This document shows positions 13,918 to 52,347 of a DNA stretch of 64,000 bases, one piece after another. The notes beneath the pieces are model-generated. The model was not told the DNA's origin and made no database searches. It saw nothing but the letters and a program-made list of their open reading frames with translations. The translations under genes and the position numbers were made by a program. Every line of letters begins with the position of its first letter. Within the stretch, counting starts at the first letter, position 1. Where the stretch lies: NCBI GenBank assembly GCA_964594965.1, contig CAZQMX010000001.1:25667-89666 (forward strand), read 5' to 3'. Source of the DNA: an uncultured Candidatus Saccharibacteria bacterium (GTDB taxonomy: Bacteria > Patescibacteriota > Minisyncoccia > Portnoybacterales > UBA2143).

Positions 13918-14703
13918 ATGAAAAACATAAAGGAAATTACAAAAGAAGAATTAGATAATTTGAAAGCTATCACCTTTGATATCGACGGAGTCATTGCTCC
14001 GATTGGGACGAAAATAAAGGAAACTATTGACGAAGATAGTATTGATTTATACATGGAATCAAAGAAACTTTCTGACAAATTTATCCAAACCCTTAAAAAA
14101 CTTGAAAAGCATCTTCGTCTTAATTTCTCATCCGGGAGAAACATTTTGTATCTCAAAAGCTTGGTTAATGAAATTTTTGACGAAAAAACAGTTCTTCAGG
14201 CAGAAAATGGCAATATTACCTGGGTTGATAACCAGATTACTCATCCAAAATATCCAAACGAATATTTTAACCTTTTAAGAGATTTAAAAGAGAAAATCAG
14301 GCAAATGAAAAAAACCGACGAAAGAATTCGCGGTTTTGAACCAAAGTTATTCATTTTAACTGTTCATTCTGAGCAAATGGAAGAAATTCCTAATTTAGTC
14401 AAAGAAATAGGGGGAGAGCAGCTTTATTGCCTTTGGACAAACGAGGGCTATGATATTGGCAGTCTTGATATGTCAAAAGGAAAGGGGATTGAAATTTTAG
14501 CCAAGGCTATGGGGATTAATCCAAAACAGATTATGACAACAGGGAATAATTACAATGACCAGCCCATGCTTGATGTTGGCAAAGGAGTATCAGTTAATCC
14601 TGAAAGAGTTAAAGGAGAATATTTTGTTGAGCATAAAAAAGAAGAACTCGGCGGAGAATTATTAGCCGAGTTCCTCTTAAAACATTTTGAAAATAAAAGT
14701 TAG
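13918..14703 (+). CDS. HAD-superfamily hydrolase (Cof/IIB-like phosphatase)
   Basis: FDIDGV motif I and a C-terminal GNNYNDQPM motif. Start moved to the ATG just after a TGTATAAT element, so the mRNA may be leaderless. Confidence 0.55.
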   Translation: MKNIKEITKEELDNLKAITFDIDGVIAPIGTKIKETIDEDSIDLYMESKKLSDKFIQTLKKLEKHLRLNFSSGRNILYLKSLVNEIFDEKTVLQAENGNITWVDNQITHPKYPNEYFNLLRDLKEKIRQMKKTDERIRGFEPKLFILTVHSEQMEEIPNLVKEIGGEQLYCLWTNEGYDIGSLDMSKGKGIEILAKAMGINPKQIMTTGNNYNDQPMLDVGKGVSVNPERVKGEYFVEHKKEELGGELLAEFLLKHFENKS

Positions 14704-15695
14704 ATTAATCCCATTTTCTGTTTGACTTTCTTTAATGTCTCTCCGGAAATCTTTTGAGCATCCTTGGCACCCTGGTCAAGGATTTTTTTAACCTGAGTCG
14801 GGTCTAGTTCCTTCATTTTTTTCTGAATGGGCTCTAATCCTTTAATAACAAGATCGGCCAGGTCTTTTTTGAATTGAGCATAACCCTTGCCCTTATATTT
14901 CTTTTCAATTCCTTCATAAGACAAACCAGAAAAACAATGATAAATTGTCATTAAATTGGCCACAGCAGGCTTTTTGGGAATATATTCAATTTCTTTTCCC
15001 GAATCTGTCACAGCTCTTTTAATCTTATTCTTAATTTCATCGGGAGAATCAGTCATAAACAGACAGCCCTGGGGAACGCTTTTAGACATCTTTTCAGAGG
15101 GGTCTGCCAAGGACATTATTCTTGCTCCGGCCCCGTAAACGAGGGCCTCGGGTATAATAAAAGTTTTTCCAAATTGATTGTTAAATTTTCGGGCAACTAT
15201 TCTGGTTAGTTCAATGTGTTGTTTTTGATCTTCGCCAACCGGAACAGCGTTGGTATTGTAAAGAAGGATATCCGAAGCCATCAAAACAGGATAACCGAAA
15301 AGCCCCATATTAATATTTTGCTTAAACTGGGCGGCTTTTTCTTTAAATTGAGTCATCCTTTCTAATTCAGAAACAGGAGTTATTGTATTTAAAAGCCAGG
15401 TTAGTTCGGTATGCTCCGGGACGTGGGATTGAACAAAAAGAGTGCATTTTTTAGGGTCTAGACCTGCGGCCAGATAAGTAGTAGCTAGGTCAAGAATATT
15501 TTTTTGCATTCCTTGAACGCTTTCAGGATTAGTTAAGGCGTGTAAATCCACAACACAAAAAATACAATCGTATTGGGACTGTAGTTCTACCCAGTTTTTA
15601 ATTGCACCCAAATAGTTGCCGATATGAATAGAACCAGTTGGCTGGATGCCGCTAAAAATTCTTCTTCGACTTTGCTCAGAATAAATTTTTTTCAT
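14700..15695 (-). CDS. trpS: tryptophan--tRNA ligase
   Basis: HIGH-type HIGN and KMSKS motifs, 331 aa. Confidence 0.85.
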   Translation of the reverse strand: MKKIYSEQSRRRIFSGIQPTGSIHIGNYLGAIKNWVELQSQYDCIFCVVDLHALTNPESVQGMQKNILDLATTYLAAGLDPKKCTLFVQSHVPEHTELTWLLNTITPVSELERMTQFKEKAAQFKQNINMGLFGYPVLMASDILLYNTNAVPVGEDQKQHIELTRIVARKFNNQFGKTFIIPEALVYGAGARIMSLADPSEKMSKSVPQGCLFMTDSPDEIKNKIKRAVTDSGKEIEYIPKKPAVANLMTIYHCFSGLSYEGIEKKYKGKGYAQFKKDLADLVIKGLEPIQKKMKELDPTQVKKILDQGAKDAQKISGETLKKVKQKMGLI

Positions 15696-15787: not shown

Positions 15788-16516
15788 TTATTTTTTATCT
15801 AATTTTTTAAAAGTTTTGATAATAGGTGAGAGATCACCGTCAATAATTTTATCCAAATTATGCCAGGATTTCTTAATCCGATGGTCAGTAATCCTGTTTT
15901 GCGGAAAATTGTATGTTCTGATTTTCTCTGCCCGCATGGCCATACCAATCTGTCCCTTTCTTTCATCGCCCCGTAGGGCCAGATCTTCTTCTCTTTTTTT
16001 AGCCAAAAGGCGAGCCCGCAGAACATTCATTGCTCTTTCCTTGTTTTGTTGTTGGGATCTTTCTTCCTGACAAGTAACCATTATTCCGGTCGGAGTATGA
16101 ATAATTCTAACAGCTGATTCAGTCTTATTAACATGCTGGCCACCCGGCCCAGAAGCTCTTAAAACATCGATCCTAACATCCTTTGGATTAATCTTTATTT
16201 CAGTTTCAGTTGCTTCTTCTAAAACAGCGACCGAAGCAGTTGAAGTATGGACTCGGCCTGATTTCTCTGTAGTTGGAACGCGCTGGACCCGATGAACTCC
16301 GCCTTCGTATTTTAACTCTTGATAAGCATTTTCTCCCTTTATTTCAAAAACAATTTCCTTGTAGCCGTTTAATTCAGATTGACTACTATTAATTAAAAGA
16401 GTTTTCCAGTTTTCCTTTTCAGCAAAGCGGGAATACATTCTAAAGAGGTCGCCAGCGAAAATGGCTGCTTCTTGTCCGCCGGCACCAGCTCTGATTTCAA
16501 TAATTACACCCTTCAT
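15788..16516 (-). CDS. prfA: peptide chain release factor 1, lacking the N-terminal domain 1
   Basis: GGQ motif and an RF1-type PxT tripeptide (PTT). 242 aa, beginning at the domain-2 sequence [11 protein letters not shown]. The upstream sequence encodes L31, not the missing domain. Confidence 0.7.
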
Positions 16517-16749
16517 TTTTTCTTTTTAGTTTTTAAGCCAAGTTTCTTTTCTCTTTTAGCCAATCTTTGCCTGAATTTTTCAACCTGGCCGGTTTCAATA
16601 ATTTTTTCCTTGCCGGTATAAAATGGATGGCATTGAGAACAGATTTCAACTTCCATATTTTCCTGAGTTGAACCAATTTCAAAGACTGCGCCGCAAGCGC
16701 ATTTAATCTTGGTGTCAGGATAATATTTCGGGTGGATATCTTTTTTCAT
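16513..16749 (-). CDS. rpmE: ribosomal protein L31
   Basis: [10 protein letters not shown]...CACG...[10 protein letters not shown]. The track ORF is trimmed to this internal Met. Confidence 0.8.
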
Positions 16750-17029
16750 TAGGGATATCATAACAAACATTGATTTATTTTTCAAGATAGTATAGGATAA
16801 TGTTGTAAATAGGGGAGGGAGAAAGGCCTTTTCAAAAAAGGCGTTTTTTAAGAGTTTATGCCCGGTAGTAGAATTTCGATAATCGCCAAGAGCGATAAAA
16901 TACCGGAGCATAGTGTTAAAGCTAAGATTATTAATTTATTTCGATAGTAATCATAGAAATTCTATTATTAAAATCGAAATTTCACTACCGGGTATGGCAG
17001 AGAAGAAGACAAAAAAAACAAAGAAAAAA

Positions 17030-17710
17030 ATGGATCTGGAAAAGATTCTTCCCAGTTTGGAAGAAATGCTTAAGGCCGGAGTTCATTTTGGTCATCGGAC
17101 TTCAAGGAAAAATCCCAAAATGGACCCCTATGTCTTTACTTCCCGAAACAATGTCCATGTACTTGATTTAGAGAAATCAAGAGAAAAGTTCAAACAAGCC
17201 CTTGAATTCCTTTTGGAATTGAAAGAAAAGAATGGGATAATTGTTTTTGTCGGAACCAAGGTTTCTGCCAAGCAGATTACCAAAGATTCAGCCGAAGAAG
17301 TCAAAATGCCCTATGTGACAGAGAGATGGATTGGCGGAACCCTAACCAATTTTAAGGTTATCTCTAATAGATTAGAGTATTACCGCGATTTGGAAGAGAA
17401 AAGAAAAAGCGGGGAGTTAAAGAAATATACCAAGAAAGAACAGCATGAATTTAGTGTTGAACTTCAGAAATTAGAAAGGCAGTTTGGCGGGATCAAGAAT
17501 TTGGTTAAAACTCCAGATGCTCTTCTGGTTATTGATATCCAGAAGGAAAAACTGGCAGTCAAGGAAGCCGGAATGAAGAATATTCCGGTCGTCGGCCTCT
17601 GCGACACCAATGCCGATCCAACCCTAATTGATTACCCAATTCCATCCAATGATGATGCTATTTCATCTCTTAAATTAATCTTATCTACAATTGTTAAAGT
17701 ATTAAAATGA
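17030..17710 (+). CDS. rpsB: ribosomal protein S2
   Basis: LKAGVHFGH signature. Start chosen at MDLEKIL. Alternative ATG at 16994 and a track GTG at 16913. Ends with a TGA stop overlapping the tsf ATG. Confidence 0.8.
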   Translation: MDLEKILPSLEEMLKAGVHFGHRTSRKNPKMDPYVFTSRNNVHVLDLEKSREKFKQALEFLLELKEKNGIIVFVGTKVSAKQITKDSAEEVKMPYVTERWIGGTLTNFKVISNRLEYYRDLEEKRKSGELKKYTKKEQHEFSVELQKLERQFGGIKNLVKTPDALLVIDIQKEKLAVKEAGMKNIPVVGLCDTNADPTLIDYPIPSNDDAISSLKLILSTIVKVLK

Positions 17711-18165
17711 AAAATATGATATCAACTGAACAAATTAAAAATCTTCGCCAAAAAACAAATCTTTCTGTTATGGAATGTAAAAAAGCATTAACAGAAGCCA
17801 AGGGCGATGAGAAAAGAGCTCTTCAGATTTTAAGCAAAAGAGGGGCAGAAAAAGCAATTAAGAAATCCGAAAGAGAAACCAAACAGGGATTAATCGAATC
17901 ATACATCCACAACAATGGCAAAATCGGAGTAATTTTAGAACTCAACTGCGAAACAGACTTTGTTGCCAGAAATGAAGAGTTTAAGAATTTAGCTCATGAT
18001 TTAGCCATGCATACTGCTGCCCTGGAACCCAAGGATGAAAAAGAACTGCTTGAACAGCCTTTTATCAAGGACGAAAGCAAAACAGTCAAGGATTTAATTA
18101 CCGAAGCCGTTGCCAAACTGGGCGAGAATATTAAAGTTGGCAAATTTGTTCGGATAGAGATATGA
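17707..18165 (+). CDS. tsf: elongation factor Ts (short form, 152 aa)
   Basis: N-terminal UBA-like LSVMECKKAL and core TDFVARNEEF. Confidence 0.7.
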   Translation: MKNMISTEQIKNLRQKTNLSVMECKKALTEAKGDEKRALQILSKRGAEKAIKKSERETKQGLIESYIHNNGKIGVILELNCETDFVARNEEFKNLAHDLAMHTAALEPKDEKELLEQPFIKDESKTVKDLITEAVAKLGENIKVGKFVRIEI

Positions 18166-18848: not shown

Positions 18849-18966
18849 GCCAGTGTAGTCCCGATTTTGTTCAAATCTCTGATTTGAATACAAAACCGCG
18901 GATCCTCGAAAATTATAAAATCAAAAGATTTTTAATTTTCGGGACTCAATGAGGTAACATATTCTA

Positions 18967-19038
18967 GCCCATCTAGCTCAACGGTAGAGCAACGCTCTTG
19001 TAAAGCGTAGGTTGTCAGTTCGACTCTGACGATGGGCT
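18967..19038 (+). tRNA. tRNA-Thr (anticodon TGT)
   Basis: Manual cloverleaf: acceptor GCCCATC/GATGGGC, D arm GCTC/GAGC, anticodon loop CTTGTAA, T loop TTCGACT. Confidence 0.8.
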
Positions 19039-19119
19039 CTGGGAGTTCGGGTGGGTTCGCCCTGTCATCCGACAGGGCGCCCCGTCGAATGACGGGGCGA
19101 ATCCTCCCACTGGCTCCAG

Positions 19120-19201
19120 GGGCGGTTCGCATAGCGGCAATTGCTCGAGACTGTAAATCTCGCGTCTTCGGACTTCGCAGGTTCGAGTCCTGCACCGCCC
19201 A
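19120..19201 (+). tRNA. tRNA-Tyr (anticodon GTA), class II with a long variable arm
   Basis: Acceptor GGGCGGT/ACCGCCC, anticodon stem CGAGA/TCTCG with loop CTGTAAA, T loop TTCGAGT. Confidence 0.8.
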
Positions 19202-19267
19202 CGCGTTTTTTATCCAAAACTTGTTTTGGGTATAAAAAAGAGCGTCCCGTCGGATGACGGGACTCAC

Positions 19268-19340
19268 GCCGATGTAGCTCAGTTGGTAGAGCACCTCCAT
19301 GGTAAGGAGTAGGTCGTCGGTTCAAGTCCGACCATCGGCT
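19268..19340 (+). tRNA. tRNA-Thr (anticodon GGT)
   Basis: Acceptor GCCGATG/CATCGGC, D arm GCTC/GAGC, anticodon loop ATGGTAA. Confidence 0.8.
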
Positions 19341-19357
19341 CAGGAAAAGAAAATACT

Positions 19358-19516
19358 ATGCCACAGGATAATATGGTAAAATTTCAGTGCGATGTTTGTA
19401 AGAGAATTAATTATCATTCTCGGAAAAACAGAAAAACAGTTCAAAAGAAATTAGAACTGAAGAAGTTTTGTCGTTGGTGTAAAAAACATACAATTCATAA
19501 AGAGATGAAGAAATAA
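19358..19516 (+). CDS. rpmG: ribosomal protein L33 (not in the ORF track; under 60 aa)
   Basis: [52 protein letters not shown]. Zinc ribbon CxxC...CxxC with the typical L33 motifs. Confidence 0.7.
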
Positions 19517-19523
19517 TAAGAAA

Positions 19524-19868
19524 ATGACTCCAAACGAATATCAAAAACTTTGTAAAAAACCTGCCAAGAAATATCGCAATAAAGAAAAAGAGATAATGAC
19601 TTGGGGATTGGGCATTGCCGGAGAAGCCGGCGATGTCGCCGGATGTATTAAGAAAACCTATAGCCATGGTCGGGGCAGCGATGAAAAGAAAGGCACCAGA
19701 GAAAACCTTGGTGATACCTTCTGGTATATTGCCATGATTTGTAACTTTTACGGCTGGGACATGGAAAATATTATGAAGGAGAATATTAAGAAACTCCAAA
19801 AAAGACATCCCAAAGGATTCTCCTTAAAAGGATACGGGAAAGTGACAAGAAAAGATTGGAATGAATAA
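19524..19868 (+). CDS. MazG-like nucleoside-triphosphate pyrophosphohydrolase
   Basis: Small all-alpha NTP-PPase with an EAGE-type metal-binding motif (GIAGEAGD...E). Confidence 0.55.
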   Translation: MTPNEYQKLCKKPAKKYRNKEKEIMTWGLGIAGEAGDVAGCIKKTYSHGRGSDEKKGTRENLGDTFWYIAMICNFYGWDMENIMKENIKKLQKRHPKGFSLKGYGKVTRKDWNE

Positions 19869-19872
19869 TATT

Positions 19873-19943
19873 GGGCGCGTCCGTTAATGGTAAACGGCTG
19901 GTCTCCAAAACCAGTCCTGCAGGTTCGAATCCTGCCGCGCCTG
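19873..19943 (+). tRNA. tRNA-Trp (anticodon CCA)
   Basis: Acceptor GGGCGCG/CGCGCCT, anticodon stem CTGGT/ACCAG with loop CTCCAAA, T loop TTCGAAT. Confidence 0.75.
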
Positions 19944-19952
19944 CTGCGTCAA

Positions 19953-25795: not shown

Positions 25796-25824
25796 TTCGA
25801 GTCCGGTTAGAGGAGCCCTGATAC

Positions 25825-25850
25825 AAACCGCACGGTTGCGCGGTTTTTTT
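25825..25850 (+). terminator. rho-independent terminator after mltG
   Basis: AACCGC-acggttgc-GCGGTT followed by TTTTT. Confidence 0.45.
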
Positions 25851-26290
25851 CGTACCGAGGGCAGGACATTTCGGGGGTGTTCGAACCTATTGAATTTTAA
25901 TTGAAAATAGATTATCTTTTTATTAAGAAATAGATATCTTGTATAAAATCCGGTAACTTTGAGCAACGTCATAGCCTCAAAAGAGGACTGGCGAAAAGTA
26001 CGAATTCTTTTTGTGGTCTATGCGACTTTGAAAAAGTTTATGGGCTTTCCAAAAGTGGTCACGAAAATTTAAGGGGGTGCTACCATAAATAGCTCGTTGA
26101 TATAGTTGTCCGGAAACCAAATCCCTCCTGGATATCTATTTCTTAAAATCAAAGAAGAGAGATTGCGTTTTTCTCTCTTCTTTTCTGTTCAACAAATAAG
26201 TTCGAAAGTCGTCCCATCGGGGGAGCCAGATTATCAAGATTCAAACCGAGACTTGACAAGGCCCTATAAATGAAATAAGATTTATGTAGC

Positions 26291-26352
26291 TGTAGACAAT
26301 AGGTGGCTTTGGCGGAAATCCTATCGAGGCGAGTGCCTTTTAATTGTCTACA
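26291..26352 (+). ncRNA. candidate structured RNA element: 10-bp stem TGTAGACAAT/ATTGTCTACA enclosing 42 nt
   Basis: Perfect inverted repeat inside the ~730-bp ORF-free region. Identity unknown. Confidence 0.25.
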
Positions 26353-26426
26353 TATTCGTAGGCATTTTTAATTTTTTGTCTGAATTTTAGAGCCGTAGGC
26401 GAATAAAATTTAGGAACAAAACATTA

Positions 26427-26506
26427 ACCCGCCCAAATTTTCGCGGAGCGAAAAATTGTGGCGGGTGCTCAATTCTGATAACTAAAAATTCTTCTTCGCC
26501 CAGGGC
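26427..26506 (+). promoter_or_regulatory. candidate rplJ (L10) leader: long hairpin CCCGCCCAAATTTTCGC-GGAG-GCGAAAAATTGTGGCGGG, then a TTCGCCC-AG-GGCGAA hairpin with a T-tract
   Basis: Two strong hairpins read directly, 25-105 nt upstream of the rplJ ATG. L10-L12 autoregulatory leaders are known in many bacteria. Assignment is an inference. Confidence 0.35.
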
Positions 26507-26532
26507 GAATTGAATTTTTAGACACAATTGGC

Positions 26533-27045
26533 ATGATTACCAAAGAAAAGAAAAAAGAAATAGTTAAGGATTTAATCGACAAACTATCCCGCCAGAAATC
26601 GGTTGTCTTTTTTGACTATACCGGCCTGAAGGTTAATCAAAGCCAGGAATTAAGAAGCAAATTAAGAGAAGAAGAAATTGATTGCCAGATTAGTAAAAAA
26701 ACCCTAATTGATTTGGCTTTAGAAAAAGCCGGTTTAAAAGATATTAAGGTCAAGGAATTAGCCGGTCGGATTGGTTTGGTTTTTGGATACAAGGACGAAG
26801 TTTTACCAGCCAAGATTCTATATGATTTTTCAAAGGAAAATAAGGATCTTAAAATTATTTCCGGTTTAATTGACGGCGAATTCTTAGGAAACGAGGCTAT
26901 TCTTGAATTAGCCAAATTACCCTCTAAACAGGAATTACTTTCAAAACTGGTTGGCAGTATTTCATCTCCAATCTTCGGATTACATAATACCTTACAAGGT
27001 AATTTACAAAAGTTGATTTATATATTAAAGTCGTGTAAAGTATAA
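26533..27045 (+). CDS. rplJ: ribosomal protein L10
   Basis: [12 protein letters not shown]...VVFFDYTGL, a typical L10 N-terminus. Confidence 0.8.
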
Positions 27046-27064
27046 TTTAAGAAAGGGCAAAACT

Positions 27065-27559
27065 ATGGCAGAAGAAAACAAGAAGGAAGAAACTCCTAAA
27101 GAGGAGGCTCCTAAAAAAGAAGAGGCGCCAACACCTGAGAAAAAAGAAAAGGAAGTTCCCGCCCCGTCGGCGGACAAGGAGGTGCCAAAGAAATTCAAAG
27201 ACTTAGTCAAACAAATTGAAGAACTAAGTGTTTTGGAATTAGCCGAATTGGTTAAAGTTCTAGAGGATAAGTTTGGTGTCAGTGTCCCGCAGTACAGCGG
27301 GATTGCTCCGGCTGCCGGAGGCGCTCCAGCTGAAGGCGGAGAAGAAAAAAGCATCTTTGACATCGAGCTCAAAAGCTCTGGTGACCAGAAAATCAGTGTT
27401 ATTAAGGTGGTTAAAGAAATTACAGACCAAGGATTAAAAGAAGCTAAAGAAATTGTTGATAGCGCTCCGAAAGTTATCAAACAGGGCGTTAAAAAAGAAG
27501 AAGCCGAAGAAATCAAAAAGAAACTAGAAGAAGCCGGCGCAACAGTAGAATTAAAATAA
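27065..27559 (+). CDS. rplL: ribosomal protein L7/L12 with an E/K/P-rich N-terminal extension
   Basis: C-terminal domain KFGVSVP...[56 protein letters not shown]. Confidence 0.8.
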
Positions 27560-51392: not shown

Positions 51393-51444
51393 TCTCTCAA
51401 TGGTGTTTATTCATCTTATTTATGCTAAAATATTGGATAAGAAA

Positions 51445-52347
51445 ATGCATCACATAGCGATAATGAGAAAATCCTGGGGTCTCTTGCCCAAGATTTTAAC
51501 CAAAGAAAAGACAATTGAATCACGCTGGTATATGAATAAATATTCCCCCTGGGACAGAATTAAAAAAGGGGATATTGTCTATTTTAAAAACTCTGGCGAG
51601 CCGATCAGCGTTAAAACAGAAGTTTCAAAGATTATTCAGTATTCAGATTTAACATCAGTTAAAGTTAAACAAATTCTTGAAGAATATGGCGCTAAAGATG
51701 GTTTGGGCATTAATGAAATTGACAAATATTATCAGATGTTTAAAGATAAAAAGTATTGTTTATTAATTTTTCTTAAAAATCCGCAGAAAATTAAATCTTT
51801 TGATATAGACAAAACCGGATTTGGAGCCATGGCGGCCTGGATAACAGTTGATAATATAAAAAGAATTATCGGAGGTCGAACCTCCGACAGTCCCAATATG
51901 ACTAATTTAATGACAAAAGAACAATTTAATAAGAAAAAGAAGGAACTGGATAAATTAAAGAAAGAATATGAGAAATTGGGTAAAAAGATTTCTGGAGAAG
52001 CCAAAGACAGCGGTTCTTTTCTTCATAATATCCCAGGCTATGTTGGATTAATGGATAGAATGGAAGCCCTCTCTTTAAAGATTGCTCAGTTAGAAAAAGA
52101 ATTGGACTCTGTTCAAATGATTAGCCCGAAGGAGATTCCTTCTGGTGTTGTCTCGGTTTTATCCTGTGTTTTGGTTTTAGATATTCTGAAAAACAAAAAA
52201 GAGAAATATTGTTTCGGGGAAAATATTAGCCAGGATTCCTTAATTGGCAAAGCGCTGATTAATAAGAAGGTTGGGGATAGAGTAAAAGTTAAAACCCCAA
52301 AAGGCGAAAGGGAATTGGAGATACTGGAAATAGAAGTTATGGCTTGA
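51445..52347 (+). CDS. fusion protein: N-terminal ASCH domain plus GreA/GreB-like coiled-coil and C-terminal FKBP-like domain
   Basis: ASCH motif LTKEKTIESRW...GD. GreA-like C-terminal domain SPKEIPSGVVS...IGKALINKKVGDRVKV. The 17-nt palindrome (51870-51886) lies in-frame at the junction. Start chosen after a TATGCTAAAAT element. Confidence 0.45.
   Translation: MHHIAIMRKSWGLLPKILTKEKTIESRWYMNKYSPWDRIKKGDIVYFKNSGEPISVKTEVSKIIQYSDLTSVKVKQILEEYGAKDGLGINEIDKYYQMFKDKKYCLLIFLKNPQKIKSFDIDKTGFGAMAAWITVDNIKRIIGGRTSDSPNMTNLMTKEQFNKKKKELDKLKKEYEKLGKKISGEAKDSGSFLHNIPGYVGLMDRMEALSLKIAQLEKELDSVQMISPKEIPSGVVSVLSCVLVLDILKNKKEKYCFGENISQDSLIGKALINKKVGDRVKVKTPKGERELEILEIEVMA

Follow-up and report, generated by a model that had tools for sequence, protein, structure and literature searches.

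The window analyzed here, a stretch of 64 kb considered as a whole, carries a prfA gene (15788..16516, minus strand) whose 242-aa product, read from an ATG start to a TAA stop, comprises only domains 2, 3, and 4 of release factor 1 (RF1). Very probably, this is a genuine prfA encoding a working class-I RF1 from which the helical domain 1 of approximately 105 residues has been deleted, which is fixed in this form within a Parcubacteria clade and which would be delivered to the ribosome independently of the ribosomal stalk. Loss of domain 1 is common to hundreds of related ultra-small bacteria (Parcubacteria/Patescibacteria). Among the proteins of bacteria, RF1 is one of the most conserved, and an architecture of four domains is regarded as universal for it; to our knowledge, no biochemical activity is known for any natural RF1 that lacks domain 1. 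Full-text searches of the literature found no account of truncated RF1 in the CPR or Patescibacteria, and PMC9297842, which deals with the shortened proteins and ribosomes of the CPR, says nothing of release factors. The known natural release factor homologues that lack domain 1, PrfH and ArfB (PMC1586002), are different families; the notable points here are that truncated RF1 is fixed throughout a clade, that its intermediates are graded, and what both would imply for termination on CPR ribosomes.

Domain Architecture, Motifs, and Family Assignment

The Pfam PCRF profile matches the 242-aa protein over profile positions 100-194 of 194 only (3.2e-46), and the Pfam RF-1 (GGQ) domain is complete (1.3e-42). 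The two NCBIfam RF1 models cover the protein over model positions 104-340 of 347 and 112-349 of 361, and the match to RF1 (E-value 1.6e-117) is far above chance. Residues 106-344 of T. thermophilus RF1 align with the protein without gaps (at an offset of 103), as do residues 88-319 of T. maritima RF1, a solved structure (9e-87), with an identity to these two factors of ~55-60% over domains 2-4. The first residue is the equivalent of residues 104-106, domain 1 (~103-105 residues) is missing entirely, and the N-terminus of the protein coincides with the first strand of domain 2. The initial annotation, made from the sequence alone, had described an ORF of 242 aa opening at domain 2 of RF1, and this is borne out by the ORF call, the Pfam and NCBIfam matches, and the structure alignments. 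An AlphaFold2 (AF2) model of the protein (pLDDT 80) has RF1 chains as its top PDB matches, over 240 columns, consistent with a predicted RF1 fold. Many deposited ribosome-RF1 structures have only ~240-260 residues of the factor modelled.

The codon-recognition tripeptide and the GGQ motif that had been reported for this ORF can both be read from the window DNA. The PxT tripeptide, P81-T82-T83 (CCA ACT ACA; 16268..16276, minus strand), aligns with P184-V185-T186 of T. thermophilus RF1, and G125-G126-Q127 (GGT GGC CAG; 16136..16144, minus strand) aligns with residues 228-230 of that protein, the GGQ motif being the one by which peptidyl-tRNA is hydrolyzed. As the crystal structure of RF1 on the ribosome shows, the first base of the stop codon is read in T. 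thermophilus RF1 by G116 and E119, the second by T186 of the PxT, and the third by Q181 and T194, with H193 and P184 also among the stop-codon-reading residues. The window equivalents of G116, E119, Q181, T186, H193, and T194 are G13, E16, Q78, T83, H90, and T91, respectively; when 30 family members are aligned, these six residues and P81, and hence both fixed positions of the tripeptide, do not vary, nor does GGQ. The switch region of canonical RF1 is also kept.

With 392.5 bits against NF001859 (cut-off 400) and 383.1 bits against TIGR00019 (cut-off 423.25), the protein falls below the equivalog cut-offs of both curated RF1 models, which it narrowly misses because ~103 N-terminal model positions are unmatched. 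Scores below the respective cut-offs were also obtained with the NCBIfam models for RF2 (prfB; 256.7 bits, cut-off 370), PrfH (107.5 bits, cut-off 166.65), and ArfB (44.9 bits, cut-off 100, with residues 104-139 alone matched). The protein combines PCRF and RF-1 domains with an RF1 score above its RF2 score, it has the PxT tripeptide, the stop-codon-reading residues, and GGQ, and its gene lies 3' of rpmE; of the features of RF1, the N-terminal helical domain 1 is lacking. The SPF tripeptide of RF2 is replaced by PTT. Canonical RF1 (T. thermophilus, T. maritima) has the PxT, the decoding residues, GGQ, the predicted fold, and the position downstream of rpmE in common with the window factor, and differs in having domain 1 and a downstream prmC, whereas the window gene is followed by trpS. 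An ArfB- or RF-H-type paralogue alongside a full-length RF1 elsewhere had been named as one case that would speak against this reading; ranked by its scores, the protein is an RF1 and neither RF-H nor ArfB. PrfH resembles it in being a natural class-I homologue without domain 1 in which GGQ is kept (PMC1586002), but differs in its codon-recognition loops, which are altered, and in always having an RtcB-like gene immediately upstream; the window protein has the decoding residues of RF1, the gene immediately upstream is rpmE, and no RtcB-type partner lies beside the window prfA. ArfB (YaeJ), ICT1, and C12orf65 are likewise GGQ-domain hydrolases without domain 1, but these also lack domains 2 and 4, the codon-recognition domains, and insert a C-terminal tail (basic in ArfB) into the empty mRNA channel, whereas domains 2 and 4 of the window RF1 are complete. 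NCBI records name the truncated proteins "PCRF domain-containing protein."

The rpmE-prfA Locus

Directly upstream of prfA lies rpmE (16513..16749, minus strand; Pfam Ribosomal_L31, 2.8e-27), which encodes a bL31 protein of 78 aa and whose TGA stop overlaps the RF1 ATG by 4 nt as ATGA (16513-16516), which leaves a domain 1 no space between the two genes. The initial annotation had placed L31 upstream and in frame with RF1; the first part of this statement stands, while L31 is encoded in a different frame, the RF1 frame itself being closed by a stop 3 codons 5' of the ATG. Such an in-frame stop also closes the RF1 frame of 16 related genomes, the distance to the ATG being 3-8 codons when the window is counted with them. 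On the other side, trpS (14700..15695, minus strand; Pfam tRNA-synt_1b, 5.4e-78) lies 92 nt downstream of prfA. In 14 related loci, too, trpS is the gene after the truncated prfA, at a spacing of -1 to 136 nt, and rpmE-prfA-trpS is probably one operon. The context of the locus is fixed by the divergent pair rpsB-tsf upstream of rpmE (16913..18165, plus strand; Pfam Ribosomal_S2 and EF_TS), an arrangement shared by GCA_018830295.1 and the closed genome CP066691.1.

Synteny was compared over 107 loci from genome and metagenome collections, with ordinary RF1 genes from the metagenome scan as length and synteny controls. In most of the bacteria sampled, rpmE is found immediately 5' of prfA. Where the two genes are adjacent in ordinary bacteria, the end of the L31 match and the start of the RF1 domain-2 match are separated by 308-612 nt; in the window and all truncated relatives, the distance is 0-135 nt. 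Full-length and partly truncated prfA genes of the CPR fill the same rpmE-adjacent slot, and because this slot is common to them, the truncated gene is by its position an orthologue of prfA, from which the domain-1 segment (~330 nt) has been deleted, and is no extra copy of the PrfH or ArfB kind.

A domain 1 concealed in another upstream frame had been put forward as a finding that would change the picture, and was looked for with a hidden Markov model (HMM) built from the N-termini of 20 full-length RF1 proteins, which detected both full domains and the 45-aa remnants present in two relatives. Six-frame translation of the 64-kb window yielded no domain 1, upstream of prfA or elsewhere (best E 0.13), and in 378 kb of related loci no separate domain-1 ORF was found, the only matches being weak ones to uS2. 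The claim that no N-terminal extension is available therefore holds on three counts: the in-frame stop, the overlap with rpmE, and the negative HMM search. The uS2 matches (window 16883-17707, plus strand, and rpsB in loci L010, L011, L020, L033, and others) have E-values of 6e-4 to 0.4 and cover domain-1 profile positions ~47-95; they are systematic and weak, and we judge them to reflect the coiled-coil resemblance of a universal helical hairpin rather than a domain 1.

Several further observations were made in and near the window. The EF-Ts encoded beside rpsB (17707-18165, plus strand) has just 152 aa, matching EF_TS profile positions 1-76 of 204, and the same short form (149 aa) is called in one further MAG and in a closed genome of the Niyogibacteria, which suggests that a second translation factor has been shortened throughout the lineage. 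Just past the ORF that follows tsf lie four tRNA genes (Thr-TGT, Tyr-GTA, Thr-GGT, and Trp-CCA; 18967-19944, plus strand), and the opposite-strand ORFs called at this cluster (18932-19300 and 19407-19808) are probably spurious. A 315-aa GreA-like protein (51400-52347, plus strand) has its GreA N- and C-terminal domains within residues 170-312, the N-terminal part of ~165 residues being an extension or a mis-called start. On the same contig, ~1.9 kb past the window end, a 126-aa gene (locus L111, 14118-14498, minus strand) carries the precomputed tag "PF27542 ArfC (weak)"; a Pfam scan gave only a sub-threshold Ada Zn-binding match and no ArfC paper was found, and the ArfC identity was set aside.

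Distribution of Truncated RF1 in the CPR

Comparison with related genomes had been proposed as a means of deciding whether the truncation is lineage-wide, and 222 of the 239 related protein clusters measured contain a truncated RF1, one of them from a closed genome of 837 kb. Among the 120 clusters nearest to the window protein (clustered at 90% identity), 118 are truncated, with lengths of 234-251 aa barring two exceptions. With a truncated relative of 58% identity as a second seed, 119 clusters were obtained, of which 104 are truncated and 5 have the full length, the other 10 being intermediate. The source names of the clusters include Parcubacteria, Paceibacterota, Candidatus Portnoybacteria, Terrybacteria, Niyogibacteria, and Pacebacteria, and a truncated RF1 is also present in one Shapirobacteria genome. 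In a distance tree, the window protein falls inside a large clade that is uniformly truncated, and the adjacent CPR branches are mixed. Here, full-length forms have 107-126 residues before the EIRAG motif, intermediates 34-83, and truncated forms 6-19; all non-CPR RF1 proteins sampled have 103-145, barring fragments at the edges of contigs and a few ORFs that were called too long. Five intermediates (P0063, P0098, P0375, P0381, and P0342) retain domain-1 profile positions 1-52, and four others (L017, L023, P0359, and P0389) retain positions 47-107. Such a distribution points to relaxed selection on domain 1 throughout the radiation and, because the intermediates keep different halves of the domain, its repeated, independent loss.

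The Shapirobacteria protein (Candidatus Shapirobacteria, Microgenomates; PFLE01000004.1, locus L025, 9974-10681) is 232 aa long with a shortened domain 2 and reads GGH in place of GGQ (…RASSHGGHNVQK…), which may be due to faulty sequencing or may mark a factor with altered catalysis. The viral contig collection yielded a sole RF1 homologue, 47% identical to the window protein (IMGVR_UViG_3300047567_000036, locus L108, 10001-10705), on a 201-kb contig of a putative jumbo phage; the scan of viral contigs gave no CPR sequence. Two proteins of 477 and 481 aa that were top matches in the representative search (P0121 and P0122) are internally duplicated chimeras and not fusions.

Function, Alternative Readings, and Implications

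In bacteria, TAG is read by RF1 alone. It terminates 17 of 68 window ORFs and, in the loci of relatives with truncated RF1, 57 of 283 (a share of ~20-25% of gene ends), and since so many genes end in a codon that has RF1 as its sole reader, the truncated RF1 would have to work. Comparison of the window prfA with a 95%-identical relative gives a dN/dS of 0.035, and the gene is under strong purifying selection. Together, TAG use and this ratio lead us to predict that the 242-aa RF1 releases peptides at UAA and UAG. Of the two possibilities that the initial annotation had offered, a genuinely minimal RF1 is the one that agrees with the clade-wide truncation, the rpmE-prfA position, the purifying selection, and the intact decoding and catalytic residues. 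TGA is also a stop codon here, as had been concluded from rpsB: it terminates 10 of 68 window ORFs (rpsB, tsf, rpmE, and 7 others) and 47 of 283 in relatives with truncated RF1, long ORFs are uninterrupted, and the window tRNA-Trp has the anticodon CCA. Because TGA is a stop and the decoding residues are those of canonical RF1, a separate RF2 for UGA is inferred. No second release factor, whether RF2 or full-length RF1, was found by tblastn in the window and 115 fetched loci, in the 10 kb on each side of the window (~84 kb of this genome in all), or in the neighborhoods of the closed genome CP066691.1 and large contigs, the flanks searched for RF2 or a second RF1 amounting to ~0.5 Mb (20-kb neighborhoods in relatives). 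Genes for RF3, uL11, and PrmC were likewise not seen within the ~84 kb.

PMC1586002 describes domain 1 as the least conserved release factor domain and reports, after Mora et al. (2003), that neither codon specificity nor the release of peptides in vitro depends on it, that E. coli RF1 without the N-terminal domain works in vivo, and that the domain was linked to interaction with RF3. Cryo-EM and kinetics have shown that the C-terminal domain of bL12 bridges RF1 domain I to uL11; with bL12-depleted ribosomes, the affinity of RF1 is markedly lower, and RF1 lacking domain I is still recycled by RF3 (PMC6076264). The engineered E. coli RF1 without its N-terminal domain (Mora et al., 2003, as summarized in PMC1586002 and also cited in PMC6076264) consists of domains 2-4 only, as does the window RF1, keeps codon specificity and peptide release, and supports growth; as this form is functional, the natural truncated form is plausible as a working RF1. 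The engineered form is a laboratory construct placed in a host with RF3 and a normal stalk, whereas the window form is naturally fixed in a clade and accompanied by graded intermediates.

The window also encodes the stalk proteins uL10 and bL12, as rplJ-rplL (26533..27559, plus strand; Pfam Ribosomal_L10, and Ribosomal_L12_N and Ribosomal_L12 at residues 45-91 and 98-164). The bL12 protein (27065-27559, plus strand) has 164 aa, with a K/E/P-rich N-terminal extension of ~43 aa before the dimerization domain; in relatives, the extension is ~13-40 aa, low in complexity, and variable in length and sequence. The usual place of rplK-rplA (uL11 and uL1) before rplJ is occupied by yceG, and the ~740 nt upstream of rplJ (25796-26532) have neither a match in Rfam nor an ORF above 55 aa.

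In the reading that we propose, domain 1 was deleted at the ancestral rpmE-prfA locus; in neighboring CPR lineages, the deletions are partial and affect different halves of the domain. The truncated RF1 would read UAA and UAG and hydrolyze peptidyl-tRNA through GGQ, with A-site binding by domains 2/4 and peptide release by domain 3 as usual, to judge from the E. coli work. What would be lost is the contact that domain 1 makes with uL11 and the C-terminal domain of bL12 and that speeds RF1 delivery, along with any coupling to RF3 that depends on domain 1. Termination at UAA and UAG would then proceed by stalk-independent binding, at a cost that may be tolerable in slow-growing, genome-reduced cells, and UGA would be left to a separate RF2. 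By extrapolation from E. coli, the most likely meaning of the truncation would be stalk-independent recruitment of RF1 with slower delivery.

Other readings of the locus can be weighed against the same evidence. The chance that the N-terminal domain has been missed through a misplaced start, a frameshift, or an assembly error is negligible: contig-end RF1 fragments and chimeric duplicates (P0121, P0122, and P0139) do occur in databases, but the in-frame stop lies 3 codons upstream, the other frame codes for L31 up to the overlap, and the gene is present in identical form in five independent assemblies (one of 143 kb from ENA, two JGI metagenomes, and two SRA runs). The structure is also repeated in the 222 related clusters and in the closed 836,981-bp genome CP066691.1 (Candidatus Niyogibacteria), where a 246-aa RF1 (at ~264,907-265,647) follows rpmE in the same arrangement. 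Supply of domain 1 in trans, from a split gene or from a substitute carried by the coupled L31 or the N-terminally extended bL12, would fit the coupled synthesis suggested by the ATGA overlap and the unusual length of the bL12 extension, yet we regard it as very improbable, given that neither the window nor 378 kb of related loci yielded a separate ORF with the domain-1 HMM, that L31 is of normal length, and that the bL12 extension is of low complexity and differs among relatives.

It is improbable, too, that the truncated protein is a specialized paralogue for rescue or quality control, of the PrfH or ArfB kind, with routine termination performed by a full-length RF1 encoded elsewhere. Natural domain-1-less homologues of this sort exist (PMC1586002), full-length RF1 genes occur in other CPR lineages, and the sequence of this genome that was covered comes to ~84 kb; against this stand the wide separation of the RF1 score from those for PrfH and ArfB, the intact set of RF1 decoding residues, the ancestral rpmE-prfA slot, which full-length CPR genes share and which makes them orthologues at one locus, the lack of an RtcB-type partner, and the lack of a second release factor in ~0.5 Mb of flanks. 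Canonical RF1 decoding residues exclude G at position 2 of the stop codon. A truncated RF1 acting as the sole class-I release factor and reading all three stops, UGA included, would account for the use of TGA as a stop where no RF2 gene is found in the sequence covered (~84 kb and the neighborhoods of relatives), but such a role is scarcely credible for a protein in which the PxT and the equivalents of Q181 and T194 are canonical and invariant, and the apparent absence of RF2 means little when a small part of each genome was covered. A genuine, working prfA that has lost domain 1 remains our preferred reading.

A clade-wide domain-1-less RF1 would confirm in nature that reading stop codons and releasing peptides do not require domain 1, a dispensability known from E. 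coli truncation constructs only. Automated surveys may call prfA missing or atypical in this clade, because the truncated proteins fall below RF1 cut-offs and are labelled as PCRF domain-containing proteins. The full, half, and absent forms of domain 1 offer a ready series for asking what the domain is for, and the kinetics of termination and the use of the stalk and RF3 would be changed on a CPR ribosome that is already unusual. More tentatively, and with a likelihood that we would put well short of even, termination in this clade may operate wholly without the axis formed by domain 1, bL12-uL11, and RF3, with RF1, and perhaps RF2, reduced to two modules, RF3 absent, and domain 1 eroded several times independently within the CPR. 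If true, the clade would represent a natural minimal termination system in which domain 1 is seen to be an accessory add-on.
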